Positions 1,974 to 52,354 of a stretch of DNA of 64,000 nucleotides are shown here, one piece after another. A program made the position numbers and the translations under genes. The notes beneath the pieces were generated by a model, which was not told the DNA's origin, searched no databases, and saw only the letters and a program-made list of their open reading frames with translations. The stretch's first letter is position 1; every line of letters starts with the position of its first letter. Source of the DNA: an uncultured Pseudomonadales bacterium (GTDB taxonomy: Bacteria; Patescibacteriota; Microgenomatia; UBA1400; PJMF01); NCBI GenBank assembly GCA_964555515.1, contig CAZKSJ010000002.1, forward strand, positions 537 to 64,536, written 5' to 3'.

Positions 1974-1983
1974 AAATGCTCCT

Positions 1984-4879: not shown

Positions 4880-5910
4880 GATAACACTTGCTTGTAAACC
4901 TTAATTGTATCTTCGGCAGTTTTCTTCCAGGTGAATCCAGCCGCCCAGTGGGCAGCATCAAGCAGCCACTGCTCTCGAGATCGATTAGACCAAGATAGTA
5001 CTTCCTTGACACCCTCGGCGATAGCGTCCGACAATGGCTCGACATAGATGGCGTGTGATCCGCCAACTTCTGGCAATGAACCGCGTTTGGTGGCAACTAC
5101 AGGCGTCTGGCAATGCATCGCCTCCAATACTGGCAAGCCAAATCCTTCCGATAAAGACGGCTGCACATAACAAAGCGCGCCATTATAAATTGCTGCTAAA
5201 TCGGCGTTATCTTCTAAGCCAATGGTACTGATAAAATGCACTCTATCCGCTAGTTTATTTTTACTCATCGCCAACTTGATAGCTTGCCACTCAGGTATAG
5301 ACTGCTCCCGAAAGTTTTTGCCAATACAGACCAGCGTTATACCAGTCGGCAGATCGGCCACTGCTTTGATCAATTCTGGCAAGTTTTTATTATAATTTAT
5401 ATCCCCAACATACAGGATATATTTTTTTGGAATTTGATATTTATTGCTAATGGTCTCAATTGAAGAGGCATTTCCCAAACTAATATTTGGGTTTGCTGCC
5501 AAAGGTACGACGTGCATCTTCTCCTGCCTAATCCGCAGCAGCTCGGCTATTTGTTGCTTGGAATACTCTGAATCAGTAATCACAGCCTGCGCAAACCATA
5601 AACTGAGCTCTTGGCGTAATAAATTAAAACTGCCCCGTAAACCAGGGTGATGGGCTTTTGGAAATTCAAGTGGGATGACGTCATGAATAGTTACCACTGT
5701 TTTCTTTGACCTGTTGATGGGCAAAGTCGCTTTAAATAGATCAAAATAAGGATAGTGAACTAAGTCAGCTTGCCACCAGTTGTCATGGGGTGAAGTAAGT
5801 ATTTCTACTTTTTCCTCACGCAAAGCATCAATCAAACATTGGGTATACCTGCCAATCCCTCTGATTTGATGGCCAGTATGCAAGGGCAAGGTGTCAATAT
5901 AAATTTTCAT
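4876..5910 (-). CDS. Glycosyltransferase family 4 (GT-B fold).
   Basis: C-terminal EGFGLPVLEAMHCQTPVV matches the GT4 E-x7-E/EAMA signature. Overlaps its neighbour by 4 nt (ATGA). Confidence 0.8.
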   Translation of the reverse strand: MKIYIDTLPLHTGHQIRGIGRYTQCLIDALREEKVEILTSPHDNWWQADLVHYPYFDLFKATLPINRSKKTVVTIHDVIPLEFPKAHHPGLRGSFNLLRQELSLWFAQAVITDSEYSKQQIAELLRIRQEKMHVVPLAANPNISLGNASSIETISNKYQIPKKYILYVGDINYNKNLPELIKAVADLPTGITLVCIGKNFREQSIPEWQAIKLAMSKNKLADRVHFISTIGLEDNADLAAIYNGALCYVQPSLSEGFGLPVLEAMHCQTPVVATKRGSLPEVGGSHAIYVEPLSDAIAEGVKEVLSWSNRSREQWLLDAAHWAAGFTWKKTAEDTIKVYKQVLS

Positions 5911-6695
5911 GCCTTAGACTTTTCTCTGAGTGCCCAAACCTTAAACAAAACAAACGGATGATGCAGGCTACTCATTAAAGCAAAAATAAAGCCGCTCATG
6001 CCGTCCACATAACCACGATGGTGAAAAAACATGGAAAACAGTGTTGAGATTGGTTTGACAATCAAATACTGCCAAATGGTTGATTTTTGGATTGGCAAAA
6101 GATCAAGGCTAACTCGAGTGGCTTCAAATGAGGTATAAGTATTAAATTTTCTCATGTAGGCACTAAAATTGGGATATGGGTAATGAAGTAAGTGACCCTG
6201 AGCAACTCCAATTGCGCCATCGACCGTCATTTGCTCATGCACATTCTGCTGTGGTAATCTAGCCTTGCCCCTGATGTACAATCTGATCACTTCATCTGGA
6301 TACTGACCGCCTTTAGTCAATACGCGCCCAAAGAAATGATTGTAGCGAGCAATTTTCCAGGCCACTGGATCTTGTTTGTAGCTACCCTGCGCCAACTGAG
6401 TGGCTAGATTAGTAATGAAATCAGCCAAGATATTTTCGACCACTTCGTCGGCATCGAGTTGAAGAATTAAATCTCCCGTAGCAGCATCCATGGCCAGCTG
6501 TTTATTAATGTGAAAGTTTGGCTTGTTGGTGGTAGCTATTACCTTAGCACCAAACTTTTTAGCAATTTCTACAGTTTGATCAGTGGATTCGCCATCGGCA
6601 ATCACAATTTCATCGGCAAACCTCTTCACACTCTCCAAGCATCGTCCTAGGTTTAGTGCTTCATTGTGAGTGGCGAGGACAACAGAAATTTTCAT
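5907..6695 (-). CDS. Glycosyltransferase family 2.
   Basis: N-terminal ISVVLATHNEALNLGRCLESV...IVIADGESTD, a typical GT2 (GT-A) start. Coupled to the upstream gene by a 4-nt overlap. Confidence 0.75.
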   Translation of the reverse strand: MKISVVLATHNEALNLGRCLESVKRFADEIVIADGESTDQTVEIAKKFGAKVIATTNKPNFHINKQLAMDAATGDLILQLDADEVVENILADFITNLATQLAQGSYKQDPVAWKIARYNHFFGRVLTKGGQYPDEVIRLYIRGKARLPQQNVHEQMTVDGAIGVAQGHLLHYPYPNFSAYMRKFNTYTSFEATRVSLDLLPIQKSTIWQYLIVKPISTLFSMFFHHRGYVDGMSGFIFALMSSLHHPFVLFKVWALREKSKA

Positions 6696-6719
6696 ATTAT
6701 TTTATTAACTATATTAGAC

Positions 6720-8345
6720 TTAGAACTGACTCAATTGCCAAGTGTCACCTGTCCATTCAACTAATAACTGCTCTTCATCTCGGTCAGCTGGCTGACCAAT
6801 AAAATGATATTGGGCTACTTGTTGACCATACCTAAAACCAATTCTATCAGGTGCTTGTCTAATCACCGAGGAGAAAAACTCTTCGGGAGTGATTTTTAGA
6901 TACCAACTGAGCAGAATATACTGGTAACCGCTAGGGTCGACAATGGCGACGGCTTTATCTTGCGACTGATCATCAACGCGTTTGATAAATTCATCAAAGT
7001 CCGACTGAAAAATAGTGGTTTGGTGTGATGGATAGCGAGTAAAGTAGGCGATTAAGTAACGGCTAAAACAAATCAAGCTGACCAAAGACAACCCGACAAA
7101 TATGGATAACTCAAGTTTTCTCTTAGATATTTTCCTTATCGTGGCTATTCTTGGCAAAATATCCGCGAATACCAAGCTGATAATGATCGGTATCCAGGCA
7201 AGAAATAATAAACTACGAGTGGTATGGGGAGCGTCAGCGGTGATGGTGGCTGGTGCTAGCGCTATGATCAACACATACAACGCGATCAGCATTCGACCAA
7301 GTGATGAATTCATCCAAGGCTGGGCTATTGATTTAAAAAATGATTTGTTACCGCGAACCCGGCCAATCAGGTGAGAACTCGCTCTGTACATGATCCAAAA
7401 GATAGAAACTATCAGCAGCGCATAGACCAACCAATTGATATGACCCCAACCAGGTATAGAGTGCCATGGATGCGCCCCACCATTCACAACCAAGAAGTTG
7501 ACACCAAAGCTCGCGATCACTCTTTCAATAATTAATCGCCCATAATAAACATATTGGTTCCCAAATAAATTTAACCAGATACCCGAGAATTGAGCTCTAT
7601 AGGATGGATAAGCAGTAACAATTGTTTCATCAGCAAAGATGGTGATAGCACTTTTTTGAGTAGTTAAGGGAGCGAGGATCATCCACACAGCCATGAAGAC
7701 AATTAGTAGTCCAATTGATGTCACCACCCAGTTTCGATAACTGCGAGCGCCACGCATCACCAATATTAAGACAGCAAAAAAAGGCATGAGTAGCAGGGGT
7801 GTGTTATAAGTCAACGAGCAAATGACCAATAAAATTAGGGCTAATAAATCTCGCCACCAGATAAACTTGCTGTTCATCAATAAGATGAGCGCAGAGATGA
7901 GAATCCCAAGAGCCAGGTTGGCTTCAAAAGCCATTCTTGAGTAAAAGAAAAATACGGGCGATGAAGCTAGAATCATGGCTGCCGCTAAAGACCAGATCTG
8001 ACTCAACTTTAATCTCCTGGCTAAGATATAGATCAGCGCTGGTAGGATTGAGCCCGCCATCACCGACGGTAGCCGGACTACCCAATCTGCAGCAGGCAAC
8101 GCTTTGAAGATTATGGCAAGTAGAAATGGATATCCTGGCAACTTGTAATCGCCAAATGATTCCAAAGCCAGTGGCCAGCTTCTACCCCACTCATCTTGTC
8201 CAGTTTTTGAGAGTAGAAGTCCGTTATAGGCCAAGGCTGCTTCATCTCGATTGAGAATGTTGGGATTTTGCTCAATCTGCCAAATCCGCAGGAAAAAACT
8301 CACTACGACTACACCCAAAACTAGCCAATTATGAATTGACTTCAT
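6720..8345 (-). CDS. GT-C membrane glycosyltransferase, ArnT/PMT-like (GT39/GT83-type; family A).
   Basis: Polytopic protein. The first periplasmic loop carries NRDEAALAYNGLLLSKTGQDEWG...ESFGDYKLPGYPF, the DE...GD motif of ArnT/PMT_2 enzymes. Confidence 0.75.
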   Translation of the reverse strand: MKSIHNWLVLGVVVVSFFLRIWQIEQNPNILNRDEAALAYNGLLLSKTGQDEWGRSWPLALESFGDYKLPGYPFLLAIIFKALPAADWVVRLPSVMAGSILPALIYILARRLKLSQIWSLAAAMILASSPVFFFYSRMAFEANLALGILISALILLMNSKFIWWRDLLALILLVICSLTYNTPLLLMPFFAVLILVMRGARSYRNWVVTSIGLLIVFMAVWMILAPLTTQKSAITIFADETIVTAYPSYRAQFSGIWLNLFGNQYVYYGRLIIERVIASFGVNFLVVNGGAHPWHSIPGWGHINWLVYALLIVSIFWIMYRASSHLIGRVRGNKSFFKSIAQPWMNSSLGRMLIALYVLIIALAPATITADAPHTTRSLLFLAWIPIIISLVFADILPRIATIRKISKRKLELSIFVGLSLVSLICFSRYLIAYFTRYPSHQTTIFQSDFDEFIKRVDDQSQDKAVAIVDPSGYQYILLSWYLKITPEEFFSSVIRQAPDRIGFRYGQQVAQYHFIGQPADRDEEQLLVEWTGDTWQLSQF

Positions 8346-8459
8346 ATTACTATCTTAGCATTAATTCATTCTCAGCTGGCATAAGCTCTGTGTTTACACT
8401 CCACATAAACACGTTTCATCAATACATTCCTGGCCGCTTAAGCTATAATTTTGGGTGAA

Positions 8460-10052
8460 ATGTTACGAACTAAGACTAATAAAATATACAAATTAATCAC
8501 CCAAACAAATATTTGGATCGATAAGGCTAGCTTTTTTCAACTTAGTGTCGTATTATTTTTCTTCTCTTTTTTTGTCCACACTGTGTACGCATTAGGTCAC
8601 AATACATTTTTACAAGATTCAGCACGAGACATCCTGATTGCAGAAAACCACTTGGCTAATCAAGAGTTGATCGTTAATTATGGCCCAAAAGCGAGCGTTG
8701 GCAACTTCTACCTTCCACCATTTTACTATCAACTGCATTTAATAGTGACAGGATTGGTACCATTTTTTCCCCTTGCCATGAGATGGGTGATATTATTTGT
8801 GGAATCTTTCACTCCTGTGATGATTTTTCTACTGTTAACACTATTCATACCAAAAAGATCTGCTTTCTTCATCAGTCTATTATATGTTTTATTCCATCAA
8901 GTCTTGATTTATTCAACCCAAAGCTGGAACCCAAATATGATTCCATTTTTCACAACCAGTTTTTTGGTATGTTGGCTGTATTATATTAAAAACCATGATT
9001 ATGGATTGATTTATTTAGCTTTATTAGCTCTCGCCATCTCACTACACCTGCATTATCAGACATTCATCTTATTGCCATTTGCCTTGATAGTTTGGACTTT
9101 TTCGTTTATCAAATTTAAGACTGCAAGAAAACATTTGCTCCTCAGCCCATGGGTAGCTGCCATCCCGTTTTTGCCTTATTTGTGGGCAGAGATAACCAAT
9201 TCATTTATTAATACCCAAGCAATAATTGCTTTCTTTTCTCAAGAGCATGCGCTCTATTATGATCGGGTTTCAAAACCCGCCTATGTGTTGACATATTTTC
9301 CCTCATTTATGGAAAGATTGATATTTAGCAAAGAAATGCCTTTTCATTTCATCGGCAGCTTACTATTTTTTGGTGGCTTTTCTATTGCTTTAATTAAATC
9401 TAAGAATAATATTATTCTAAGATGGTTGTTGTTCTATTTTGGTATGGCGTTTGTGATACTAAGAGTCTTCAAAGGTGACAAATTGGATTATTACTTAATG
9501 ACTTTGTTTATATTACCCACTTTTTTATTAGCTTGCTATCGATTGATCTCAACAAGATTGACGGTTATTTTGGGTTCAATTATGCTAATTTTAATACTAT
9601 GGTATTTACCGACGCTGAAAACACATAATTTTTATCGGGACCTAAAACAAATCGTGTCGTTTATTGAAATTAAATCACCCACTCAAGATATTCAGGTCGT
9701 TTTTCACGACTTGAGTAACGCCAATTATCTTTACTACGGACTACTTAAATTTAGCAATCTCAGCATAGTGCCAGCATCAACTACTTTGGTTGATCTATGT
9801 CCTAGTTATGAAGCACAGTGCGCCTGGGACGGGATAGCCATGTGCAAACCAGGAACCCCAGATGATGAAGAAGTTTTCTGGTATGCACTCGATGCCAAGT
9901 ACCACAACGACTATAAAGTAATCAGCTACAAAAAAATTGATGATAAGTTTCAGGTAGCAATTGGTCAAGTCAACCAACCCAGATCTTTGCCAAATCACCC
10001 TCAACAGCATGACGCATCATGGTATGGTAGTGACTTCTTGATTCCTTTATGA
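8460..10052 (+). CDS. GT-C membrane glycosyltransferase, ArnT-like family B.
   Basis: Polytopic protein. Motif QDSARDILIAENHLANQELIVNYGPKASVGNFYLPPFYY aligns with the ArnT DEARY...GDW loop. Paralogous to the ORFs at 43559 and 50801. The track start at 8451 is TTG; ATG at 8460 is more likely. Confidence 0.55.
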   Translation: MLRTKTNKIYKLITQTNIWIDKASFFQLSVVLFFFSFFVHTVYALGHNTFLQDSARDILIAENHLANQELIVNYGPKASVGNFYLPPFYYQLHLIVTGLVPFFPLAMRWVILFVESFTPVMIFLLLTLFIPKRSAFFISLLYVLFHQVLIYSTQSWNPNMIPFFTTSFLVCWLYYIKNHDYGLIYLALLALAISLHLHYQTFILLPFALIVWTFSFIKFKTARKHLLLSPWVAAIPFLPYLWAEITNSFINTQAIIAFFSQEHALYYDRVSKPAYVLTYFPSFMERLIFSKEMPFHFIGSLLFFGGFSIALIKSKNNIILRWLLFYFGMAFVILRVFKGDKLDYYLMTLFILPTFLLACYRLISTRLTVILGSIMLILILWYLPTLKTHNFYRDLKQIVSFIEIKSPTQDIQVVFHDLSNANYLYYGLLKFSNLSIVPASTTLVDLCPSYEAQCAWDGIAMCKPGTPDDEEVFWYALDAKYHNDYKVISYKKIDDKFQVAIGQVNQPRSLPNHPQQHDASWYGSDFLIPL

Positions 10053-11806
10053 ACAACATTAGAAATTTCATCAATTATTTCCATTTACTACCTTTGCTAA
10101 TCCTGATTTTACTGGGCTTGTATGGTATTCAAGCCCTGTTTCACCCAGGACTTTACAGTGCGCATGACATATGGCACCAAGTAGCGCGACTCTATCATTA
10201 CTCCGCGGCGGTAAGTGATGGGGCAACCTTGCCAACTTGGATCTCTACACTCGCCAATGGCTATGGCTATCCCTTATTTTACTTTTCTTATCACTTTCCT
10301 TGGCTGATGGGACTGCCCTTCATCTGGTTAGGATTTTCAATTTTTAGTACGCTAAAAATATTATTTGGTTTAGCCTTTATGGCTGCCGGTTTCGCTATGT
10401 ATTGGTTGGCTTTTGTCATCTTTAAAAATCGAATTGCAGCTCTAGCGGTTGCTGGTCTTTACCTAATTTCTCCTTATCATTTTTTCACAATCTTTGTATC
10501 AGCTTCGATTGGCACGGTCTTTCAGTTTGCTTTGTTACCCCTGATTGTGCTGGGTATTTTTCAAACCATTCGGGAACATAAAATGAGTGGAACATTACTG
10601 TTGGCAACTACAGCTGCTGCCAGTATTTTGTCCCACTTAATGACTTTTGTCTTTTTGGTACCTTATTTAACGATTTACACGTTGGTTTTATTAATTGAGC
10701 AGAGACATCAAACAATGCTGCTGTTTAAAAGCATTAAATTACTGTTCACTGCAGCCCTAATTGCCCTTGGCCTCAGCGCCTTTTATGTCATTCCCACCCT
10801 ACTTTACTTACCGCTGGTCAGAGCCGGCGAGGGTACCGCCAATTTTCAAACTCTCTACTTGGGTGGATTCGTCACGCTTAAGCAACTACTATACTCAACC
10901 TGGGGCTTCTCACCTATATCAGAAAATGCGGCTACGAGTGACATCTCTTTTCAAATTGGAATTGCCCAGTGGTTAATCATCGCTGCAACAGCCTTTTTAC
11001 TTAGCTTCTTTGCAATTCTGCGTCTATTAAATAATTATCGTCGACGGCGTGTGGAGCAATCCAAGCCTTTTATATTCCTAAGACGCATTCTTGATTTCAA
11101 GTTTTTAAGTAAATTCTGGGCAACAGCGTTAGTGATTGGCTCGCTACTCGGCTTGTCTATTTGGCTGATGCTGTCGTCCTCCATCCTAGTGTGGGATTTG
11201 ATCGCTCGCTATTTTACCCTCGACTTTCCGTTCCGTTACTTGATCGTGGCAGTGTTTCTCGCCTCGTTGTTGGCTGGTTTTGTGATTGGTTCATTAAGCA
11301 CACAGAGCCTAAAGCTATTTGGACTATTTTGCATTATTGTGATAGCACTTTACACCAACCGAAATCATATCAAAGTGAATATGTACACCGACTACGCTTT
11401 GCAAGAATATATTGGAGCAGAGTTGACCACAACTACTTTTCATGAGTACTTACCTATTGCGGCCGATTCTGGGAATTTGCAGCTTTCACAACCACAACTC
11501 ATCAAAGACATCCCGGCTGAAATTTTGTATACCTCGCCCACTAGGTTAGTAATTGGCGTTAATATTGACGGGTTGAGAAATGCTGAGGTGAGACAATTCG
11601 ATTTTCCCGGACAAAGAGTCTACATCAATGGCAAGTTGCTTGAACGCGAAATTGATCCAGGTAAATTAATTTTGTTCAAACTGCCAAAAGGTTATCACAC
11701 CATTGAAATTAGGTACCAAAATCCGCCCATCTATTACCTAGGACTGCTCACTTCCTCTGTTACAATTATCTTTGTCCTAATAGTTTTGCTAAGAAAGCCA
11801 AAATGA
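10049..11806 (+). CDS. GT-C-fold membrane glycosyltransferase, YfhO/PTPS-related family (paralog 2 of 3).
   Basis: Motif YSAHDIWHQVARLYHY...GYGYPLFYFSYHFP. C-terminal domain contains FDFPGQRVYINGKLL and ends in a TM anchor. Overlaps both flanking genes by 4 nt. Confidence 0.5.
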   Translation: MNNIRNFINYFHLLPLLILILLGLYGIQALFHPGLYSAHDIWHQVARLYHYSAAVSDGATLPTWISTLANGYGYPLFYFSYHFPWLMGLPFIWLGFSIFSTLKILFGLAFMAAGFAMYWLAFVIFKNRIAALAVAGLYLISPYHFFTIFVSASIGTVFQFALLPLIVLGIFQTIREHKMSGTLLLATTAAASILSHLMTFVFLVPYLTIYTLVLLIEQRHQTMLLFKSIKLLFTAALIALGLSAFYVIPTLLYLPLVRAGEGTANFQTLYLGGFVTLKQLLYSTWGFSPISENAATSDISFQIGIAQWLIIAATAFLLSFFAILRLLNNYRRRRVEQSKPFIFLRRILDFKFLSKFWATALVIGSLLGLSIWLMLSSSILVWDLIARYFTLDFPFRYLIVAVFLASLLAGFVIGSLSTQSLKLFGLFCIIVIALYTNRNHIKVNMYTDYALQEYIGAELTTTTFHEYLPIAADSGNLQLSQPQLIKDIPAEILYTSPTRLVIGVNIDGLRNAEVRQFDFPGQRVYINGKLLEREIDPGKLILFKLPKGYHTIEIRYQNPPIYYLGLLTSSVTIIFVLIVLLRKPK

Positions 11807-12522
11807 AAGTGATCGCCGTCATGCCCGCATTCAATGCGGCAGAGACCCTTGAAAAAACAGTGAAAGACATCCCAAAGGGAATTGTTGACCAGATTATTTT
11901 GGTTGACGATAATAGTTCTGATCAGACAGTCAAACTTGCCCGGAAGTTAGGTCTACAAGTGATTAAGCACCCACAAAACCGTGGTTATGGTGGTAATCAA
12001 AAAACTTGCTACACCCATGCACTCTCTGAAGGCGCCGATGTCGTGGTGATGATTCATCCCGATTATCAATATGATAGTAGTTTAACTAAGGAGATGGTTT
12101 TGCCCATCATGAACGGTAGAGTGGATGTGATGCTTGGCTCAAGAATTCGCAGTCGCGAGGAAGCCTTGGCGGGGGGCATGCCACTTTACAAATATTTTGG
12201 GAATAGATTTTTGACCCTGACTGAAAACTTATTGCTTGACCGAAACTTGTCTGAGTATCACACTGGCTTCCGAGCATTTCACAAAAATATTTTGAAAAAG
12301 TTGCCCTTCCATAAATACTCAGACGACTTTGTGTTTGATTCGCAAATCTTGTTTGGCACCATTGCCTTAAAGGCTAAAATAGGCGAAATTCAAGTGCCCG
12401 TCAGGTACTTTGAGGAGGCTTCGTCAATTAATTTTATGAGGTCATCCATTTATGGTTTGTCAATTTTGAGAGACTTGGGGTTATACGTCATCACTGACGG
12501 CAAGTGGTTTTTAAATAAATAG
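11803..12522 (+). CDS. GT2 polyprenol-phosphate sugar synthase (DPM1/GtrB/CsbB-like).
   Basis: N-terminal VIAVMPAFNAAETLEKTV...IILVDDNSSDQT and a short soluble GT2 of 239 aa. Translationally coupled (ATGA) to the upstream YfhO-like gene, the same pairing as the Bacillus csbB-yfhO module. Confidence 0.65.
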   Translation: MKVIAVMPAFNAAETLEKTVKDIPKGIVDQIILVDDNSSDQTVKLARKLGLQVIKHPQNRGYGGNQKTCYTHALSEGADVVVMIHPDYQYDSSLTKEMVLPIMNGRVDVMLGSRIRSREEALAGGMPLYKYFGNRFLTLTENLLLDRNLSEYHTGFRAFHKNILKKLPFHKYSDDFVFDSQILFGTIALKAKIGEIQVPVRYFEEASSINFMRSSIYGLSILRDLGLYVITDGKWFLNK

Positions 12523-12531
12523 CAGTTGCAG

Positions 12532-14292
12532 TTAATTTCTAGAAATTGCGGCAATCACATACTCCTCATTTTCTGAATCGATATACCGAGACTCGTTAAC
12601 AATCATTATGTCATTATCGAGTGTGAGTTTTGTCCAATCATTGGCTCTCATTACCACGATCGATTTGTCCAAATCAGGCCATCTTGGTAAACCTTCATTA
12701 ACATGATAGATCCCAAATCTAGTCGTCGCAAAATCCTGATCGAAATCTGATCTGGCTGTGCTGTTTATGACGGGAAAATTGTCATAGTCAGGTTGACCAG
12801 CAATCCATAGATACATTCTTGTATTTACCCCCCAAAAAAACACTTCTGTCTGATCGGTGTTCAGGGCTTGTGATTGCTCCAACAGAAATTGGTCGCGCTC
12901 TGCCCAAGCTCCTCTACTCAAACTTTGATATGGTTTCTGATAATAGTAGGCAAACTCTACAACAGCAAAGATCAACCAAATCAACCATCCTATACCTACT
13001 ATTTTCATACCCAATTGGCCAAATCGACGCATTATGAAGAATATGAAGGAATGTAAGCCCACTCCAATAATGATACTGAGCGGCACCAATGCATTTAGTG
13101 AACGTAGCGCATGAGGAGTAGTATTGGGGACAGCAGCTGGTAATAAAGCAACCATCCACCAAATGAACAATATCAAACCCATGGCACGATGTTTGGTGGC
13201 TAACTCGTAGATCCCGCAAACAAACACTGGTAAAAATGGTAGTAAAAATAAACCATGAGCGCCAGTACCATGACGGAGGTTTTCATCACCGTTTAAAAAT
13301 AGAAAATTGAAGTCTAAAAAATCAGCATAGTTAGTTGCTAGCTGTCTCACGAATAACCAATCGCGATGAAAAATTAGCCGGTCAAAGCGACTATTACCAG
13401 CGAGTTCGCGATAGACATTCTGAGTTAGTACTAGATCACCCCGATCATTTAGAACGGAGTCTGTACTCAAGCGGTACTGTTCTGAAGCAGCTGCGAGTGG
13501 AGAGTAGGTCTGGGGTAATAAAAGCATATAAAAACCTATTAGAGGGAACAAAATCGTGAGGAAGATCTTAACGAAAATATTTGAGGTAGTTCGGTTCCTA
13601 GATGCTAGGTGCCGCGTTTGCCATAACTGATAGAACGAAATTGAAACGAATACAGCAGGGGCTACAAATCTAACTGAGTAATAAGTGTAAGTGCTGGCAG
13701 CCATTAACAATACACTTACTAATCGCCACCAACCGTTTCTGAGACTTAATAGGAGCGCATAGATAGACAAAGCCAGTAATAATTGAGCTAGATGTCCTTC
13801 AAACCCAGCTCTAGAAAAGGTCATTGACCAAGGACTGACAGCCACTACCATTGCAATAGCTACAGCCAACCAACGGTGCGTGATATACCACTCTTTGAGT
13901 GGTATATTTAAATCCCGTTTGAAGTTGCGCCAGCGCCACAACTCTAAGCCGATTAATGGCGTGATAAAGATTGTGAATAAACCAGCTAATAGGCTTGGAA
14001 CTCGAACTACCCATTGCTCATCGCCAAAGAGAGCTACCGCCACGCTGAGCAGCCAAATATAAACGGGTTGTTTATAGTCACCATATGATAAGAAGATGGG
14101 CTGTAACCAGCTTTCACCATGCATATCTTGACCTGTTGCCACCACAGATTTAGCATCAACTAACATCGCCATTTCATCGATATAGAGCGTGGCGGAATTT
14201 GATTTGAAATTGTAGATGCGTAATCCTAGTCCAATCGTCATGACCAGGAAAATTAAACAAAAAAATAAAATTGTTGAGTTATGCTTTGTCAT
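12532..14292 (-). CDS. GT-C membrane glycosyltransferase, ArnT/PMT-like (family A).
   Basis: Loop motif LYIDEMAMLVDAKSVVATGQDMHGESW...LSYGDYKQPVYIWL. N-terminal hydrophobic start MTKHNSTILFFCLIFLV. Confidence 0.75.
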   Translation of the reverse strand: MTKHNSTILFFCLIFLVMTIGLGLRIYNFKSNSATLYIDEMAMLVDAKSVVATGQDMHGESWLQPIFLSYGDYKQPVYIWLLSVAVALFGDEQWVVRVPSLLAGLFTIFITPLIGLELWRWRNFKRDLNIPLKEWYITHRWLAVAIAMVVAVSPWSMTFSRAGFEGHLAQLLLALSIYALLLSLRNGWWRLVSVLLMAASTYTYYSVRFVAPAVFVSISFYQLWQTRHLASRNRTTSNIFVKIFLTILFPLIGFYMLLLPQTYSPLAAASEQYRLSTDSVLNDRGDLVLTQNVYRELAGNSRFDRLIFHRDWLFVRQLATNYADFLDFNFLFLNGDENLRHGTGAHGLFLLPFLPVFVCGIYELATKHRAMGLILFIWWMVALLPAAVPNTTPHALRSLNALVPLSIIIGVGLHSFIFFIMRRFGQLGMKIVGIGWLIWLIFAVVEFAYYYQKPYQSLSRGAWAERDQFLLEQSQALNTDQTEVFFWGVNTRMYLWIAGQPDYDNFPVINSTARSDFDQDFATTRFGIYHVNEGLPRWPDLDKSIVVMRANDWTKLTLDNDIMIVNESRYIDSENEEYVIAAISRN

Positions 14293-14305
14293 AGGGCATG
14301 TAATT

Positions 14306-16027
14306 TCATTTTCTTAAGATATACCAAATCGGTTGGCCATCTAAGCCAACAACTTTGGTGACTGCAAAGTTCCCCAACGCTGCTTCATCCACCTTACTAG
14401 CTAGCACCACTCCTACTTCACCAACTGTCAACTGACCAAGGTCCACTTCCCGGTCAAAGATCATCTTTTTATAAGTAATTAATTCTCCTTGATCAAATTC
14501 TTCATTTGTTGCTGATGCCTGCACCAAGCTGGGGTCTTCATTGGTGTAGAACCAAACGTACATCGCTGGTCTACCCAAACTTCTCGCGAAGCGAATTGGT
14601 TTACCTGCGGCGATGTCGGCTGATAGCTCGCTAACTAGTTGTTGATAGCCATACTGCCATTCATGCTGAGATTGAACTGGATAGATGTATAAGTAATAAC
14701 GAAAAAAAGCTACCAATTCCAGTAAATAAAACCCAATAATGATAGCAACCAGCGCCAGTTTCGTCGATGATTGAAGAACTTGATAAAAAACGGACTGCTT
14801 GCTGAAATACTTGATTCCTAGTTGTTGAATTAGGTGCGTACTTTCCTTGACAAAAGAACTCAGTCCCAAGGAAATGATCAGTAAAACTGCTGGCAAGGCT
14901 GGTAAAATACGGAGAGCATGGGGATTGGGCTTGGCCATCGTAGCTGGCAACAACGCCACCAAGAGCCAACCCCAAATTAACCAATCCACAGTTCTCCTCC
15001 GCTTCATCATCAACAGAACCCCCCAAATGAGAAAAACAGTTTCGAAGTGGTAAATCAAACCCGTGAAGCTAGTACCATGACGAAGATTGACATCACCGCT
15101 TACTGCCCAAAAACTCAGCGAGGAATAACTGAATAGATTCTCTACAATTGTTCTGGCCATGATGACATAACGGTGGTAAAAAATTCTAGAACCAATTGAG
15201 TTTGCTGATGCATCGCGCAATTGATTGCTAGTGGTAATTACCTCCAAATCACTAGTGATACCAGTCTCTTTGAACCGCTGGGTAATTAAATTTGAATTGG
15301 GATTGAGCAATGTCACAAGTAGCGGCAACATTAAGACTGCAACCAATATGGCTGCCACAAATGGATAAACCAAAGCTTGATGTTGCCAAACAATCTTCTT
15401 ATTGCACCAGTCTGCGCGTCGTTCCCATAATGAGACCACCAATAAGATCATGACTAATAATGGTACCATTAGCCGGGCAGAATGATATGCATAAGGCGCT
15501 AACCCCAAACTTATCACAGCCAATAAAAATTGCCATGTCCCTCCTATTTTGACTGCTCGCCACCACCAGGCCACTCCCCAAGTTATCAACACTGTGGCTA
15601 AGTGTGCCTCCCAAGCTCCTCTAGAAAAATGAATTGCCCAGGGAGAAATTGCCGTCATAAACAGTGCCCAGGCCGCAGGAAATTTAAACTGCCGGGCTAA
15701 GAAATAAATACCCATCATCATGAAGACACCAAGCATCACTCCAGAACTTCTTACCGCCAGATCAGTTAAGCAGAGTATTTTAATAAATGGCACTAAGTAA
15801 TAAAAATACAAACTTGGTTTCCAATCACCAAAGGATTCGAAGGCAAGGATGGGCCAAGGATGACCGTGATGATCTTTACCTGTTTCTAGAATTGAAAAAG
15901 CATCATATCCCAGCGCTACTTCTTCCCAATAAAGTGCTGGTGGTGCACTAGTTACTTGATAAGCTCTCAAGAATAAGCCAAACACTAAGATCGCCAATAT
16001 TAACCAAAATATTTTATTAGTTGGCAT
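14306..16027 (-). CDS. GT-C membrane glycosyltransferase, ArnT/PMT-like (family A).
   Basis: Loop motif ALYWEEVALGYDAFSILETGKDHHGHPW...ESFGDWKPSLYFYY. Start set at Met17 (MPTNKIFWLIL) to avoid a 59-nt overlap with the upstream paralog. Confidence 0.7.
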   Translation of the reverse strand: MPTNKIFWLILAILVFGLFLRAYQVTSAPPALYWEEVALGYDAFSILETGKDHHGHPWPILAFESFGDWKPSLYFYYLVPFIKILCLTDLAVRSSGVMLGVFMMMGIYFLARQFKFPAAWALFMTAISPWAIHFSRGAWEAHLATVLITWGVAWWWRAVKIGGTWQFLLAVISLGLAPYAYHSARLMVPLLVMILLVVSLWERRADWCNKKIVWQHQALVYPFVAAILVAVLMLPLLVTLLNPNSNLITQRFKETGITSDLEVITTSNQLRDASANSIGSRIFYHRYVIMARTIVENLFSYSSLSFWAVSGDVNLRHGTSFTGLIYHFETVFLIWGVLLMMKRRRTVDWLIWGWLLVALLPATMAKPNPHALRILPALPAVLLIISLGLSSFVKESTHLIQQLGIKYFSKQSVFYQVLQSSTKLALVAIIIGFYLLELVAFFRYYLYIYPVQSQHEWQYGYQQLVSELSADIAAGKPIRFARSLGRPAMYVWFYTNEDPSLVQASATNEEFDQGELITYKKMIFDREVDLGQLTVGEVGVVLASKVDEAALGNFAVTKVVGLDGQPIWYILRK

Positions 16028-17648
16028 GTTCACCAGTGTAATAAACTTCAAACCGAACTTGACCATCACTACCATAAACTAAATGTGTGGCTTCATGCTG
16101 ATCAAGATTGAACTTGGGAGTACTGATCACCAAGGTATTGTGCCTTAATAGATCAGATCCTGACAAACTATTGGTAAACTCATATTTATAAAGTGATCCA
16201 CCTCGATAAGCAATGGGAGAAGTCTTTCGAACAAACAGAGCAAAAATGTATGGCTGACCATAGTCGTCGCTGACCAGAATTTTATCTACTGGAGCTTGTC
16301 CATATTCACCTCTTTCATAAGCCGTTGCTAGCTGCATCGCCTCAAGATAGCCATCTTGGAACTCTGCAGCACTGACTCTCGCGAAATTATTAAGATAATC
16401 GTGCCAGTAATGCATAAATATTAATGATTCGATCAAGAAAGTCATACCTACAAGCAATCGAAAACTTATATCCAGAGATATTTTTTTCGATAACCAAGTG
16501 ACCGTAGCATCGACTCCATAAATTGCTAGTAAAATAAATCCAGGCAAGGCAAATAGGGCACGATTGCTGTGTGGTACAGCTTCAGATGAAAGAGCCGCCG
16601 GAATTAGTCCGAAGATCACAAAAGCGATACCGTATCCTAACAAACTGTATTTCATCTGCTGATAATGAGCTAATCGAAATAGAATCATCAGTAACGCAAT
16701 CATGCTAAATAAGAACGTCATGGGCAGTAATACCCCCCAACTACCAGAACCATGCCGATATGAATCAGTCTGACCCAATACTAGAAATTGGGGAGATAAA
16801 TGGGCGACCAGATTTTCTGCAAAAACTTTAATAGTGGTAACGGCAGTATAACCTTGATTAGTGATGAGGACACCAGCTCTGGTCGCCCCATGTCCAAAAA
16901 CACCATCATAAATAAGTGGCAACACAAGAATTATGCCGATCATCAAGCCACATATCAGCCAACGCCACTCCCTCCTCACCCACTCGCGTTGCTGATACCC
17001 ATACCAAAATACAAACAATGGTACAAATATTTTTGCACTATGATAAGTATAGAGCGCGGCAGCCCAAGCAATTGAGCTCATCAGTAACAAACCTATTTTT
17101 TGATATTTATTTAATTGTGCAAACCTTTCAATCATCTGGGCTGCCGCTACCAATCCAACTAGAAAAAAAGCTAGCGCCATGCCTGATTCAAACCCCACCC
17201 GAGAGTAATGAACATGCCATGGCACAGTGGCGATGAGAAACAAACCAAGTAGTGTTTGCCACTTTTTGGCATGATTTTCAGCTAATATGTACGTTAGAGC
17301 TCCAAATGCAAGAACGGTGACCATGCCCGCTAGGGCAAAAGGCAGTCTTACTACCCATAACTTAAGCCCCAACAAAATGGTAAACACGCCGTTGATGTAA
17401 ATTGCTGCGGGAGCCTTGTAATCTCCAAAAGACTGAAACGAGATAGGAATTTTGTGTAACCACTCATCTCTTCTGGTGGTAATAACCGCGTGACCATTAT
17501 AACCAATGGCTGCTTCATCCCAGGTCATACCGTGAGGAATAACGCCCAATTGATAGAACCTGACTAAAACCGCCAACAAGATGATGAGGCTGCCAAGCAC
17601 AAAAAACCACTGCTGCTGAGACTTATAAAAGGGTTTAAGTAATTTCAT
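16017..17648 (-). CDS. GT-C membrane glycosyltransferase, ArnT/PMT-like (family A).
   Basis: Loop motif GMTWDEAAIGYNGHAVITTRRDEWLHKIP...QSFGDYKAPAAIYIN. Start set at Met17 (MKLLKPFYKSQQQWFFVLGSL), which matches the N-termini of the paralogs. Confidence 0.7.
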   Translation of the reverse strand: MKLLKPFYKSQQQWFFVLGSLIILLAVLVRFYQLGVIPHGMTWDEAAIGYNGHAVITTRRDEWLHKIPISFQSFGDYKAPAAIYINGVFTILLGLKLWVVRLPFALAGMVTVLAFGALTYILAENHAKKWQTLLGLFLIATVPWHVHYSRVGFESGMALAFFLVGLVAAAQMIERFAQLNKYQKIGLLLMSSIAWAAALYTYHSAKIFVPLFVFWYGYQQREWVRREWRWLICGLMIGIILVLPLIYDGVFGHGATRAGVLITNQGYTAVTTIKVFAENLVAHLSPQFLVLGQTDSYRHGSGSWGVLLPMTFLFSMIALLMILFRLAHYQQMKYSLLGYGIAFVIFGLIPAALSSEAVPHSNRALFALPGFILLAIYGVDATVTWLSKKISLDISFRLLVGMTFLIESLIFMHYWHDYLNNFARVSAAEFQDGYLEAMQLATAYERGEYGQAPVDKILVSDDYGQPYIFALFVRKTSPIAYRGGSLYKYEFTNSLSGSDLLRHNTLVISTPKFNLDQHEATHLVYGSDGQVRFEVYYTGEHAN

Positions 17649-17667
17649 GCAGCTCCATTGTAGCGGT

Positions 17668-18588
17668 CTATGATATAGCCTGTGAAGCAGTTGCACGGCT
17701 TCTGTGCCACCACCAATAAGGCCGCCAGATTAAAAATGATAACCTTTGCCAGAAATGACCATTCTTCCAAGTAAAACGATCGGCATTGCGCCAGCTAATT
17801 TTTTGCATTTCCTGAGCTGTCCATACTGATTGATGGGTGCTTTCATGTTTATGATAGATAATTGCTTTCGGCTCAAAGATTATTTGCAGTCCTCTTCGGC
17901 GAGCTCTAAATGACAAGTCAATATCTTCCCAATATGCCGGATAATATCTTTGGTCAAAGCCGCGCAGCGTCTGCCAATCATTTAGTCTAAACATGGAGCT
18001 ACCACCACTCGCCCAAGCAGTACTGCCATATTCAAAATTAGCTGCCTTGGCATGCTTAAACAAGCCCATTTCAAACCATAGTAAATTTTTACCACTCGGG
18101 TTAGATCCTGCTTGATCATCAAATTCCAAAGCCGTTACCGCAAACACTTTTGGATTTGACTCTAAAACCCGAGCCAAGTTGATAAAAGCTGCCGGATGTG
18201 GAGACGCATCATTATTCAACAACATGACCATTTCGTGACAGGCCAAAGATACTCCCAAGTTTGCGGCCCCTCCAAAACGCAGATTGCTTTCATTGGCAAC
18301 CAACATCAAATCAAGATGTTTTCCTTCAGCAGAATATGCTCCAGCATAATACCTGAGTTTGAGCAAATGTGGATCTGGAAAATAACCTTTAAGCAAATTA
18401 AATTCTGGTGATCTAGATTTTTTGAGCTTGAATTCACTACATAACCACGCAACTGTCTGATCATTGCTAGCATCATCACTAATGATTAACTGACTTCCAA
18501 ACGGTAGTGCTTTTAGCACAGCTGGCAGGTGGGTATGCAATAACTTTAATCCGTTAAAAGTCGGAATCACACAAGACACTTTAGTCAT
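17668..18588 (-). CDS. Glycosyltransferase family 2.
   Basis: CVIPTFNGLKLLHTHLPAVLKAL...IISDDASNDQT is a GT2 N-terminus. Start set at Met8 to avoid overlapping the upstream GT4 gene. Confidence 0.7.
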   Translation of the reverse strand: MTKVSCVIPTFNGLKLLHTHLPAVLKALPFGSQLIISDDASNDQTVAWLCSEFKLKKSRSPEFNLLKGYFPDPHLLKLRYYAGAYSAEGKHLDLMLVANESNLRFGGAANLGVSLACHEMVMLLNNDASPHPAAFINLARVLESNPKVFAVTALEFDDQAGSNPSGKNLLWFEMGLFKHAKAANFEYGSTAWASGGSSMFRLNDWQTLRGFDQRYYPAYWEDIDLSFRARRRGLQIIFEPKAIIYHKHESTHQSVWTAQEMQKISWRNADRFTWKNGHFWQRLSFLIWRPYWWWHRSRATASQAIS

Positions 18589-19702
18589 CAACTGGTTCCT
18601 GGTCAACATTAAACATATTATTCACCTTCTTGGCAAAAGTGCGCTCATTAAAATGACTGGCTCGCTCTCTCACCTTTACTCCCAAATCAACTACTTTAGG
18701 TGGATGTTTCATCAACTCCCAAGTATGGGAAACACATTCAGCCTGACTGTGCCATCCCAATCCAGATAAGTCTTCACCCAAGACCTCACGCTGACCCCCA
18801 GCCAAATATACAAGTGGCACACATGAAGCCGCCATCGCCTCGACAGTACTTATCCCAAAGTGTTCAACTGCTTCAGGACAAATATTCTCATCAATCCCGT
18901 AACCCGCTGCATGCCAATAAATGGTGGCGCTTTGATACAAATCAATTAGCTCTTTTCTAGATAAATTAGTTTTAAACTCTATTGGAAAACCCGTCGCCAT
19001 CTTTTTTAACTCTTTTAACCAAGTTTCATCCTCAGTTGAACCAGCTAAAACCAACTTCCATCTTTTTGTGACACTCTGATGGGTCAAACATAGCTTTTGA
19101 AACATTTCAATTAAAATATCTTGGCGTTTGGAGTGAAGCTGTTTAAAATATCTGCCTACATTCAAGATCATGGGCTCTTTATGAGGGCTACCGGTAAATT
19201 CAGCTTCATTAATCATGGGATGTAAAACTAAATTTACCTGCGCTCGCCAATTTTGCTCAATAATTGACTTGGTAAAATATGAGTTAGTATTGATGTGCCG
19301 CCAGTTTTTTAATTTCAAACGATCTATAGGAGAAGTAAGTCGATTGGAGAATGGTACCTGGACGTGTAGGTAGTTGTGATCAGCTAAACTAAAAAATAAT
19401 GAACCATCACTCACGTAATAAAGCCCATCATAACGGGCTGTCCAAAGTAGCTTAGATGCCGCAGATTGCTTTGAACCAAGAGGAGTTTCGACAAACTCAA
19501 TCGCAGCCAAATCTTGATTCATAAAGTTTTGATACTGTTTTTTAACATAACTCAATGTTTGATCCTTGGGCAGATGCTGGGATGAAACCGCCACACAAAC
19601 TTGATGGTTTGCAGCTGCCACACCCGCTACATCTAGTAAGTGCTTTTCGCCACCACCAAAATGATTAGGGAAATAGGGTGAATAAAAACAAATGTTCATC
19701 AA
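18581..19702 (-). CDS. Glycosyltransferase family 4 (GT-B fold).
   Basis: C-terminal EHFGISTVEAMAASCVPLV is a GT4 signature. The N-terminus MMNICFYSPYFPNHFGGGEKH is typical of GT4 enzymes. Confidence 0.75.
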   Translation of the reverse strand: MMNICFYSPYFPNHFGGGEKHLLDVAGVAAANHQVCVAVSSQHLPKDQTLSYVKKQYQNFMNQDLAAIEFVETPLGSKQSAASKLLWTARYDGLYYVSDGSLFFSLADHNYLHVQVPFSNRLTSPIDRLKLKNWRHINTNSYFTKSIIEQNWRAQVNLVLHPMINEAEFTGSPHKEPMILNVGRYFKQLHSKRQDILIEMFQKLCLTHQSVTKRWKLVLAGSTEDETWLKELKKMATGFPIEFKTNLSRKELIDLYQSATIYWHAAGYGIDENICPEAVEHFGISTVEAMAASCVPLVYLAGGQREVLGEDLSGLGWHSQAECVSHTWELMKHPPKVVDLGVKVRERASHFNERTFAKKVNNMFNVDQEPVDD

Positions 19703-20517
19703 TTATTTTTCCACATATCTGCCAATTCCTGCTCAAGCTTTTGGTATTTATCAGCAATGGTGGGGCTTTGTTGTCTTTCCCAAACCTGAATGTAGACCAA
19801 CATCCTATTGATTGCTTGAATGGTGGCTTCCATCAATCCCACCTGTCCATCTTTATAACCGCGATATTTAATCACTCTTCTTAAGAACTCACCAAATCCT
19901 TTTCTCAGTACCGTCAATAAGTTGACATTTGGGATACTTGAATCGGCCAGGAGCCTCGCTTCGATCGGAGTCCAGGCTGCTGATTTGATCAATCCAGATG
20001 ACACATTCCGATGGGAAAAGTGAACTAGCTGTGATTTTAGCGCCACACACTCACCCTGATATCGTGGACTTTCATGAATATCCCCAAACCATTCCACATC
20101 AGCGGATTTATGGAAGGCACGCGTCACCGTGTCTTCCGCCCAACCACCGTACATCAATTCTGTTCCAAAGAAAATATTCCTGCGAGCCATACTTAAAGCT
20201 GCAGTTTGTTTTGTTTCTATTGTTACGCCGATTTCTTTGGCCAAAGTAGGAGTGACTCTTTCATCGGCGTCAATATAAATAAACCACTCAGTGGAAACGT
20301 GTTTAACAGCCTCATTGCGTAGCTTGGCAAAAGAAGGGTGCTGAAAATGGATAACTTTTGCGCCTTGTTGTTCGGCGATTTCTGCGGTCTTATCTGTAGA
20401 ACCAGTGTCGATCAACAAAATTTCCTGGCACCAACGCAACGAATTTAGACAACCCGGCAACATTGATTCTTCGTTTTTAGCGATGATGACGGCAGTGATG
20501 GGTAGATGGTGGTTCAT
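19699..20517 (-). CDS. Glycosyltransferase family 2.
   Basis: ITAVIIAKNEESMLPGCLNSL...LLIDTGSTDKT. Overlaps both neighbours by 4 nt. Confidence 0.7.
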   Translation of the reverse strand: MNHHLPITAVIIAKNEESMLPGCLNSLRWCQEILLIDTGSTDKTAEIAEQQGAKVIHFQHPSFAKLRNEAVKHVSTEWFIYIDADERVTPTLAKEIGVTIETKQTAALSMARRNIFFGTELMYGGWAEDTVTRAFHKSADVEWFGDIHESPRYQGECVALKSQLVHFSHRNVSSGLIKSAAWTPIEARLLADSSIPNVNLLTVLRKGFGEFLRRVIKYRGYKDGQVGLMEATIQAINRMLVYIQVWERQQSPTIADKYQKLEQELADMWKNN

Positions 20518-21431: not shown

Positions 21432-21485
21432 TTGTTTATTATATACCTGTTATTATTATTCAATTAGGTGCTAGATATCAATCTA

Positions 21486-22394: not shown

Positions 22395-22425
22395 AAAATG
22401 TCTCCATTAACATCGTACAGGGTCT

Positions 22426-23991: not shown

Positions 23992-23993
23992 AA

Positions 23994-25805: not shown

Positions 25806-25873
25806 TTAAAACTAGCAACCCTGCATACTACTCTCTCGCAGAAGGCGTGCCAGAGAAAACACAGCCTGCAGAG

Positions 25874-48588: not shown

Positions 48589-48693
48589 TCAGATGAAACC
48601 TAGCGACTCTTCAGCGATTAATTAAATAACAATGATCATCATCCTTAGAATCGACAAACCCGCAATCGACGACTAATAAACCTTCAATTAAAC

Positions 48694-50025: not shown

Positions 50026-50027
50026 AA

Positions 50028-52342: not shown

Positions 52343-52354
52343 AGCAAATGGCGT

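Follow-up and report, generated by a model that had tools for sequence, protein, structure and literature searches.

An ancient co-linear array of predicted GT-C glycosyltransferase paralogues in a putative cell-wall glycopolymer cluster of Patescibacteria

Introduction

Patescibacteria (CPR) are abundant, have very small genomes and are for the most part uncultured, and the cultivated ones are attached to other microbes. To our knowledge, their surface chemistry is essentially unknown. The stretch of DNA analysed here (64 kb, referred to as the window) carries several genes for similar large membrane proteins, which raises the question of whether these are recent copies of one another or long-separated enzymes, and of what such a set would do at the cell surface. 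An initial annotation had gathered five ORFs in a "Family A" of ArnT/PMT-like GT-C enzymes, made up of a tandem triplication and two further copies. No paper describing family A or its gene cluster in CPR bacteria was found in the literature.

Four family-A genes and a separate GT-C-like protein

All five ORFs are real, located on the minus strand and each provided with its own start and stop. As described, three of them are adjacent over 12532..17648, co-directional and similar in length, namely the core array member A16 (16017..17648, minus strand, 543 aa), A14 (14306..16075, minus strand, 589 aa) and A12 (12532..14292, minus strand, 586 aa). The 543 aa of A16 are counted from the ATG of the initial annotation, GTG 17696 being the start of the longest ORF. 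A16 and A14 overlap, the gap between A14 and A12 is 13 nt, and the true start of A14 may be ATG 16027, because its residues 1-17 are unconserved and modelled at pLDDT <50. The ORF at 6720 (A67; 6720..8345, minus strand, 541 aa) had been regarded as an extra copy outside the triplet. It is a true paralogue, yet it belongs to the conserved array as its fourth gene: in L005 and L006, as in many further loci, its orthologue immediately follows that of A12. In all-vs-all BLASTP, the four copies share 24-27% pairwise identity over 400-545 residues (E 1e-16 to 2e-41). Fragmentation of one frameshifted gene was ruled out: start and stop are separate for each ORF, and every ORF encodes a complete GT-C with the N-terminal motif and a C-terminal domain. 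A scan of positions 6000-18800 for promoters and terminators gave chance levels, with 30 promoter-like hits for 33 expected and 12 terminator-like hits for 10 expected.

On the contrary, the inclusion of the ORF at 46918 (46918..48588, minus strand, 556 aa) in the family was not borne out. This separate GT-C-like protein had no BLASTP match to the four copies at E<1e-3, and hhalign aligned it to the family-A profile with a probability of 42% over 188 columns, against 96% over 418 columns for the ORF at 50801, a member of a second PMT_2-like family that was not among the five ORFs. It scores 28.4 bits with the PF02366 PMT model (cut-off 22.7) and found no match in a PDB sequence search. About 13 large GT-C-like membrane proteins, which would serve the glycosylation of the envelope, are encoded in the 64 kb window, four of them belonging to family A.

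Conserved residues of the first loop

Translating the 64 kb window in six frames yields exactly four occurrences of the strict motif S[FY]GD[YW]K, each at the equivalent position of a family-A ORF and within a longer first-loop motif. The latter is found at nt 8142-8246 in A67, 14071-14178 in A12, 15818-15925 in A14 and 17415-17519 in A16, where it reads DEAAIGYNGHAVITTRRDEWLHKIPISFQSFGDYK. Family membership was defined by (D/E)E..A...T(G/R).D...S(F/Y)GD(Y/W)K and by similarity along the full length in pairwise comparison, and both are present in the ORFs at 6720, 12532, 14306 and 16017. The motif had been attributed to all five ORFs; the loop of 46918 reads ADEAIY...DDLP...LNDGK, with neither TG.D nor SFGD(Y/W)K. 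Residues E52, D68, S81, G83, D84 and K86 (numbering of the ORF at 14306) are invariant in 105 homologues drawn from the four groups. This invariance, along with the count and position of the motif, rules out a compositional artefact.

The predicted model places E52 (of the D/E-E motif), D68 and D84 between the helix 19-38 (TM1) and the helix 89-101. These proteins thus have, in the extracytoplasmic loop that follows TM1, the conserved acidic residues by which GT-C enzymes are recognized. Twenty-two residues are universally conserved and present in all four copies, and every copy retains all the conserved polar ones; E52, D68 and D84 with K86, R152, E156, H333, H386 and R389 are among the 22 and are predicted to form the active and phosphate-binding site. 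The variable parts behave differently within and between orthologue groups. In the first extracytoplasmic loop (EL1), members of one group share 71% identity and those of different groups 40%; for the C-terminal domain the values are 41% and 16%, respectively, a pattern of specificity-type divergence.

Age of the paralogues

The three tandem genes had been taken for the product of recent tandem duplication and divergence. Their adjacency, common direction and similar length would fit a triplication in the lineage of the window, after which the copies would still be diverging and might in part be redundant. Their sequences tell otherwise, as paralogue identity is only 24-27%. Homologues from other Patescibacteria, distant genomes included, match one particular window copy at 38-49% identity and the other copies at only about 24-28%. 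Identity amounts to 36-51% within orthologue groups and 21-28% between groups; it ranges from 41 to 49% in the A16 group (200/200 bootstrap), from 35 to 45% in the A12 group and from 32 to 47% in the A67 group (50%-identity representatives, most full length). For the three tandem copies (120 homologues per search), each retrieved homologue was nearest its own query copy by 131 bits or more.

In a neighbour-joining tree built without very distant outgroups, the four groups form separate clades, each in 200/200 bootstraps, and every window copy falls into its own orthologue group and never pairs with another; two clades were broken when 46918 and the 8451/43559/50801 family were included as very distant outgroups. 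Gene order was compared in 80 species-representative loci retrieved with an A16 profile, from genomes mostly labelled Patescibacteria. Family A is widespread in Patescibacteria, its records carrying the labels Pacebacteria, Woesebacteria or Microgenomates. The order A16-A14-A12-A67 recurs in 31 of the 53 evaluable loci, and A14, A12 and A67 never occur in another order. As the copies have their own orthologue clades and their order recurs, the duplications are older than the divergence of these lineages, and a recent triplication is extremely improbable.

Compared with a relative that is 82-94% identical, dN/dS across the four copies is 0.19-0.26 (0.19 for A16 against L001, 0.23 for A12 and 0.19 for A67). 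These ratios indicate that all four copies are functional and under purifying selection.

Enzyme class and comparison with known systems

The multi-pass membrane core of family A, as modelled, superposes structurally on solved GT-C enzymes, and the four copies are accordingly assigned a GT-C fold at the level of the predicted structure. Fold matches include the solved Pmt1-Pmt2 and EmbA-EmbB complexes, and AglB and STT3B are as close as ArnT. Of the designation "ArnT/PMT-like GT-C", the GT-C part thus stands, while specific membership in ArnT (GT83) or PMT (GT39) is not supported. A PDB sequence search with a 105-sequence family-A profile finds no solved structure. ArnT itself was hit with a 5-sequence profile (E=0.0095, 18 bits) and lost with the 105-sequence one, and the NCBIfam ArnT model did not match the family-A copies. 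ArnT is the undecaprenyl-phosphate-L-Ara4N:lipid A transferase, from which family A differs by an identity of 10% and by the lack of arnA/B/D genes, no ArnA/B/D-like ORF being found in the window. A monoderm envelope with a rhamnose wall polysaccharide has been inferred for Patescibacteria (PMC11809585), and for this reason lipid A is not expected. With the PMT_2 model (PF13231, gathering score 26.1 bits), A67 passes at 30.3 bits, A12 stays below at 19.9 and A14 and A16 have no match; many family-A orthologues bear a precomputed PF13231 match. Family A is made up of subfamilies that are uncharacterised within an already known enzyme class.

Protein O-mannosyltransferases (GT39, PF02366) are 12-14% identical to family A, whose four copies have no PF02366 match and no MIR domain. 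That each paralogue would be a PMT-like O-glycosyltransferase for a different class of secreted or surface proteins, such as pilins, S-layer proteins or sortase substrates, is for this reason unlikely. In addition, the cluster with its LCP ligase, Wzx, many GT2/GT4 enzymes and rml genes is that of a typical wall polysaccharide pathway, and the PMT_2-type enzymes of monoderms GacL, CsdD/F and GtlB target glycopolymers (PMC8035078).

GT-C enzymes of multi-component systems take lipid-linked donors outside the membrane (PMC11127046, PMC8035078). The PMT_2-type enzymes GacL, CsdB/D/F, GtlB, GtsC and YkcB (PMC8035078) resemble family A in size, GT-C fold, monoderm host and marginal PMT_2 similarity, although no significant sequence similarity was found between the characterised members and family A. 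Like family A, they are encoded within or close to a cluster for wall polysaccharide that comprises rml genes, a Wzx-type flippase and LCP, and the window also has DPMS/CsbB-like GT2s and a GtrA domain. Such systems likewise involve several GT-A/GT-C pairs in a genome, and the pairs differ in their targets (PMC8035078). However, these are isolated pairs whereas family A consists of four co-linear paralogues, and the GT2 adjacent to family A is not CsbB/GtrB-like and is in some genomes fused to the GT-C. In the same way, the mycobacterial emb operon contains three homologous GT-Cs that differ in acceptor. In the emb/Aft systems (EmbC/A/B, AftA-D; PMC7341804), an operon carries several GT-C homologues, distinct from one another in acceptor or linkage. 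Working outside the membrane, they assemble a wall heteropolysaccharide on a backbone that is made in the cytoplasm and attached by LCP, and WbbL/GlfT-like GT2s take part in the pathway. Finally, Gtr-type O-antigen glucosylation and GT136 three-component systems (PMC11127046) follow the same logic, in that a synthase of the polyprenyl-phosphate sugar and a flippase are combined with a GT-C that is serotype-specific and acts once export has taken place. They are accessory, often phage-borne, single GT-C modules of diderms, whereas the family-A array is chromosomal, ancient and conserved in the 80 related genomes that were compared.

Gene cluster, fusions and insertion

The array lies in a surface-glycan cluster of about 17 genes (1047..26950, no strand assigned), delimited by Pfam content and by gene order as in L001, L004, L005 and L006 and across the 80 loci. 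In window order it consists of an epimerase, a 419-aa PMT_2-like protein (1984), a YfhO/PTPS-like protein (3197), GT4, GT2, A67, an insertion, A12, A14, A16, GT2, GT4, three GT2s, a Wzx-type flippase (22426), a YfhO-like protein (23994) and an LCP ligase, and rmlBCD adjoin it. The canonical order is LCP, YfhO-like, Wzx, three GT2s, GT4, GT2, A16, A14, A12, A67, GT2 and GT4. One of the window's GT2s, at 20514, reached 85 bits with a rhamnosyltransferase model, which is under threshold.

Directly upstream of A16 lie a GT2 glycosyltransferase matching Pfam GT2 families (g176; 17668..18609, minus strand), for which a PDB sequence search gave no match, and then a GT4 matching Pfam Glycos_transf_1 (18581..19702, minus strand). 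A g176-type GT2 is adjacent or fused to A16 in 61 of 69 evaluable loci. GT2-A16 fusions are present in 12 of the 80 loci, for instance in P0268 (821 aa), which joins a g176-type GT2 (44% over 307 aa) to A16 (46% over 540 aa). GT2-GT4 fusions occur in 5 of the 80, as in L004 where the fused protein has 639 aa. Judged from these gene fusions, g176 is a Rosetta-stone partner of A16 and the two would be functionally coupled.

A16 is present in all 80 loci, while A14, A12 and A67 are all found in 31 of the 53 evaluable loci, all missing in 15 and partially present in 7. This distribution could suit a model in which at least A16 acts as a polymerase or en-bloc transferase on a Wzx-flipped polyprenyl-diphosphate oligosaccharide, in the role of Wzy or a ligase, and A14, A12 and A67 form an optional decorating cassette. 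Within the cluster, no protein was recognised as a Wzy-type polymerase, the GT2 fused to A16 is of a cytoplasmic chain-elongating type and the fold is no nearer to ArnT than to the oligosaccharyltransferases AglB and STT3B. Yet the 22 residues shared by all four groups suggest a common chemistry, and the polymerase could just as well be found among the YfhO/PTPS-like proteins or in the 419-aa protein at 1984. As an A16 profile served to retrieve the loci, the universality of A16 reflects the way they were selected. A polymerase role for A16 seems as unlikely as protein O-glycosylation.

The same distribution, with A14, A12 and A67 mostly found or missing as a set, together with the strictly conserved order and tight spacing, would also be expected from an obligate hetero-oligomeric complex of the co-linear paralogues, and known GT-C paralogues do heterodimerise, as in the solved Pmt1-Pmt2 and EmbA-EmbB. 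Since A16 stands alone in 15 loci, such an obligate complex is still less probable than a polymerase role; it is compatible with the explanation favoured below and the two are not mutually exclusive.

In the window, the array is interrupted between A12 and A67 by a three-gene block on the opposite strand (8451..12522, plus strand), which the canonical layout does not have between these orthologues. It encodes a PMT_2-like membrane protein (8451..10052, plus strand), a YfhO/PTPS-related membrane protein (10049..11806, plus strand) and a DPMS/AglJ/PpgS-like GT2 (11803..12522, plus strand; PDB 5MLZ, E 9e-7). The pair of YfhO-like protein and GT2 is placed elsewhere in L038, L052, L055, L057 and L068, and the GT2 at 11803 accompanies the YfhO-like gene, not the A genes. 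Other PgfS/ArnC-like GT2s are encoded at 50028 and at 52355, the latter fused to GtrA (PF04138), and both match the ArnC model weakly (about 50 bits for a cut-off of 529). None of these three GT2s, nor the Wzx at 22426, is specifically tied to any family-A copy.

Proposed function

Taken together, the four genes are ancient, non-redundant paralogues of an uncharacterised GT-C family and form a fixed co-linear array in a conserved glycopolymer cluster. They probably act in the way outlined here, and their likely role is to carry out different glycosylation steps on a cell-wall glycopolymer outside the cytoplasm. In the cytoplasm, GT2 and GT4 enzymes would assemble a polyprenyl-linked glycan, probably containing rhamnose because rmlBCD adjoin the cluster, and a Wzx-type flippase would move it outward. 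As their fold suggests, the family-A enzymes would use lipid-phosphate-linked donors on the non-cytoplasmic face, each adding at the outer face of the membrane one sugar or linkage from a polyprenyl-phosphate-linked donor, for which the DPMS/ArnC/PgfS-like GT2s at 11803, 50028 and 52355 are candidate synthases. Acceptor specificity would be set by the poorly conserved C-terminal extracytoplasmic domain and the long loops. An LCP enzyme would act last and join the polymer to peptidoglycan.

By analogy, a broader proposal can be put forward tentatively: the array may be the external half of a Patescibacteria-wide production line, analogous to the synthesis of mycobacterial arabinogalactan, for an undescribed wall heteropolysaccharide. 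Four dedicated GT-Cs (6-7 in some genomes) from one new family at the CAZy level would then act in a fixed sequence, and GT4-GT2-GT-C fusions would couple the last cytoplasmic to the first external steps.

Significance

The earlier picture of three tandem copies plus two is corrected, in that the array is ancient and has four members, and the fifth ORF belongs to a different family. The conservation of gene order despite genome reduction suggests that the product is important to the cell, and the cluster offers a concrete target for studies of glycan chemistry and host attachment. If the broader proposal is true, this glycan could serve as the principal structure on the cell surface for the contact between episymbiont and host.

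Membership of the family and its shared residues

Four large open reading frames of the minus strand, 6720..8345 (541 aa), 12532..14292 (586 aa), 14306..16075 (589 aa) and 16017..17696/17648 (alternative starts, 559/543 aa), here named A6720, A12532, A14306 and A16017 (family A), encode mutually similar proteins. When the 49 large ORFs of the window were compared all against all by BLASTP, these four shared 24-27% identity over 400-545 residues (E 1e-16 to 2e-41). The initial annotation had credited these four and a fifth ORF, 46918..48588 (-, 556 aa), with a common first-loop motif. This holds for the four, as translating the window in all six frames yields exactly four instances of the strict core S[FY]GD[YW]K, one per ORF, each within a longer (D/E)E.A...T(G/R).D...S(F/Y)GD(Y/W)K in the N-terminal region. 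The 46918 protein has to be removed from the family: it reads ADEAIY...DDLP...LNDGK at the motif position, matched none of the four copies at E<1e-3 in the same BLASTP, and reached 42% hhalign probability over 188 columns against a profile of 105 family members. The 50801 ORF, absent from the original list, reached 96% over 418 columns against this profile and forms, with 8451 and 43559, a second PMT_2-like family.

Pfam PMT_2 matches of family A are marginal, with 30.3 bits for A6720, 19.9 bits (below threshold) for A12532 and no match for A14306 and A16017. The 46918 ORF was the only one of the five to match PF02366 (PMT), and NCBIfam models gave nothing useful for the proteins. The earlier assignment of the four to the GT-C fold was right. 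The conserved acidic residues of family A fall in the loop that follows transmembrane helix 1, the usual site of catalytic acidic residues in GT-C enzymes. Altogether, 22 residues are at least 85% conserved in all four orthologue groups and present in all four window copies (R37, E52, A54, D68, S81, G83, D84, K86, R109, P111, P145, S151, R152, E156, Y197, P205, H333, P377, P385, H386, R389 and L391, A14306 numbering). Within groups, the first external loop (71%) and the 380-390 loop (77%) are best conserved; the C-terminal extracytoplasmic domain is the least conserved part between groups (16% identity vs 41% within). Such a pattern would be expected for common chemistry with differing acceptor recognition. 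Moreover, since dN/dS against a close relative (locus L001) is 0.19-0.26, at dS 0.16-0.47, all four copies are kept by selection.

The annotated start of A14306 overlaps the end of A16017 by 59 nt (16017..16075), and L001 is called with the same overlap. The first 17 residues are unconserved and modelled at pLDDT <50; ATG 16027 is a plausible true start, leaving an 11-nt overlap like that of the equivalent junction in the distant locus L005.

Age of the duplications

Used as queries, the family profile, A12532 and A16017 each drew hundreds of homologues from metagenome-assembled Patescibacteria genomes (Candidatus Pacebacteria, Woesebacteria, Microgenomates), under names including 'glycosyltransferase family 39 protein', 'ArnT family glycosyltransferase' and 'hypothetical protein'. 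With A6720 as the query of a full HMMER scan, 5,289 cluster representatives passed E<=1e-3, of which 267 also passed E<=1e-30. The three adjacent copies had been regarded as products of recent tandem duplication, a view contradicted by these homologues. In the three word-indexed searches, the query copy itself was the closest for all 360 matches listed (median 344-437 bits vs 127-169 to the next copy, margin at least 131 bits). A neighbour-joining tree (166 sequences, 509 columns) resolved the four groups as clades (bootstrap 200/200 each) holding one window copy apiece, and no two window copies are sisters. Identity averages 36-51% within groups and 21-28% between groups. In addition, L006 and L004 hold extra family-A-like genes outside all four groups, so that old branches of the family number more than four.

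A conserved array with alternative fusions

Eighty loci were collected by scanning one genome per species, and their ORFs were labelled by comparison with the window. The canonical layout runs from an LCP ligase (opposite strand) through YfhO-like 23994, a Wzx flippase, GT2-21486, GT2-20514, GT2-19699, GT4-18581, GT2-17668, A16017, A14306, A12532, A6720, GT2-5907, GT4-4876, YfhO/PTPS-like 3197 and the 1984 protein to epimerase 1047. The window is its exact reverse, save for a three-gene insert, 8451..12522 (opposite strand), between A12532 and A6720. Gene order is as in the window both in L001 (82-94% amino-acid identity) and in the distant L004, L005 and L006 (37-55%). Fifty-three loci extend 6.5 kb or more beyond the A16017 orthologue on its downstream side; of these, 31 carry all three further paralogues, in the order A14306-A12532-A6720 without exception, 15 carry none and 7 carry one or two.

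In 61/69 evaluable loci, GT2-17668 is either the immediate upstream neighbour of the A16017 orthologue or fused to it; 12 loci have a fusion with A16017 and 5 a fusion with the upstream GT4. For instance, the 821-aa protein P0268 corresponds end-to-end to GT2-17668 (44% identity) followed by A16017 (46%), L005 has an 829-aa GT2-17668 fusion to the downstream GT-C (10001..12490), and L004 has a 639-aa GT4 fusion to GT2-17668 (6401..8320). Alternative fusions thus link three consecutive genes, GT4, GT2 and GT-C. In type, the A16017-fused GT2 resembles chain-elongating enzymes rather than lipid-phosphate-sugar synthases.

Cluster records (L010-L086) are often titled 'uncultured Pseudomonadales bacterium', 'Methylococcaceae bacterium' or 'Vitreimonas sp.', and L085 'candidate division TM6 bacterium GW2011_GWF2_28_16, complete genome'. 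Because gene order is identical in all those records, taxonomic mislabelling of the metagenome-assembled genomes is suggested.

Other glycan genes and a mosaic insert

About nine further large polytopic proteins with GT-C-type matches (1984..3243, 3197..4879, 8451..10052, 10049..11806, 23994..25805, 43559..45163, 46918..48588, 48694..50025, 50801..52342) are encoded besides family A, so that 64 kb of a small genome hold about 13 in all. They comprise three YfhO/PTPS-related proteins, three of the second PMT_2-like family, a 419-aa protein with a weak PMT_2 match, the PF02366 PMT-like protein and one weakly matching mycobacterial alpha-1,6-mannosyltransferase MptA. A second glycan locus, 46918..56781 (-), encodes the PMT-like GT-C, the MptA-like membrane protein, an ArnC/PgfS-like GT2, a PMT_2-like GT-C, a GT2-GtrA fusion, GDP-mannose 4,6-dehydratase, an epimerase/reductase and UDP-glucose dehydrogenase. 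In L050, L058 and L067, the main cluster has a 46918-type gene as its immediate upstream neighbour.

In the insert (+), the gene for a YfhO/PTPS-related membrane protein precedes that for a DPMS/CsbB-like GT2, making a classic GT-C/GT-A pair. The GT2-11803/10049 pair recurs at other array positions in five loci (L038, L052, L055, L057, L068), as if it were a movable module. Against L001, divergence over 8451..14292 is mosaic: flanking genes share 95-99.8% nt identity (8451 gene 99.6%, 23994 gene 99.8%), the YfhO-like gene 10049..11806 just 67% nt and 63% aa (dS 1.2), with its neighbours GT2-11803 (dS 0.50) and A12532 (85% nt) in between. The pattern resembles that of a serotype-like hotspot where recombination has replaced alleles. 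The DPMS-like GT2 11803..12522 (+) is 74% identical to its L004 orthologue (18655..19380), whereas other L004 cluster proteins share merely 40-51% with the window, reflecting either far stronger constraint than on its neighbours or recent exchange.

Proposed role

Further products of the cluster are a Wzx-type flippase, an LCP ligase joining glycopolymer to peptidoglycan, seven GT2s and two GT4s, and rmlB/C/D-like genes adjoin it; neither an initiating transferase nor a Wzy-type polymerase was recognised. Three window GT2s resemble polyprenyl-phosphate-sugar synthases, all model matches being below equivalog cut-offs: 11803 (dolichol-phosphate-mannose synthase 5MLZ, AglJ, PpgS), 50028 (PgfS, ArnC) and 52355 (PgfS, AglJ, ArnC; fused to a GtrA domain). 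Such lipid donors supply the sugars that GT-C enzymes of characterised systems transfer at the external face of the membrane (PMC11127046, PMC8035078), and Patescibacteria are inferred to be monoderm and to make a rhamnose wall polysaccharide (PMC11809585). From this context and these precedents, we propose that synthesis of a wall glycopolymer would begin in the cytoplasm, and that the polymer would be flipped by Wzx, modified by the four family-A enzymes in four different extracytoplasmic glycosylation steps, and anchored by LCP. Protein glycosylation, a polymerase or en-bloc transferase role of A16017, and hetero-oligomer formation by the paralogues are less likely possibilities.

The closest working analogies are the mycobacterial emb/aft arabinosyltransferases, with emb comprising three homologous GT-C genes of one operon that differ in their acceptors (PMC7341804), and, in Gram-positive bacteria, the GacL/Csd/Gtl enzymes. 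The array is not a new kind of system; within a strongly conserved surface-glycan cluster, the four genes represent uncharacterised subfamilies, spread across Patescibacteria, of an enzyme class already known, and are of use to those working on the CPR cell envelope.
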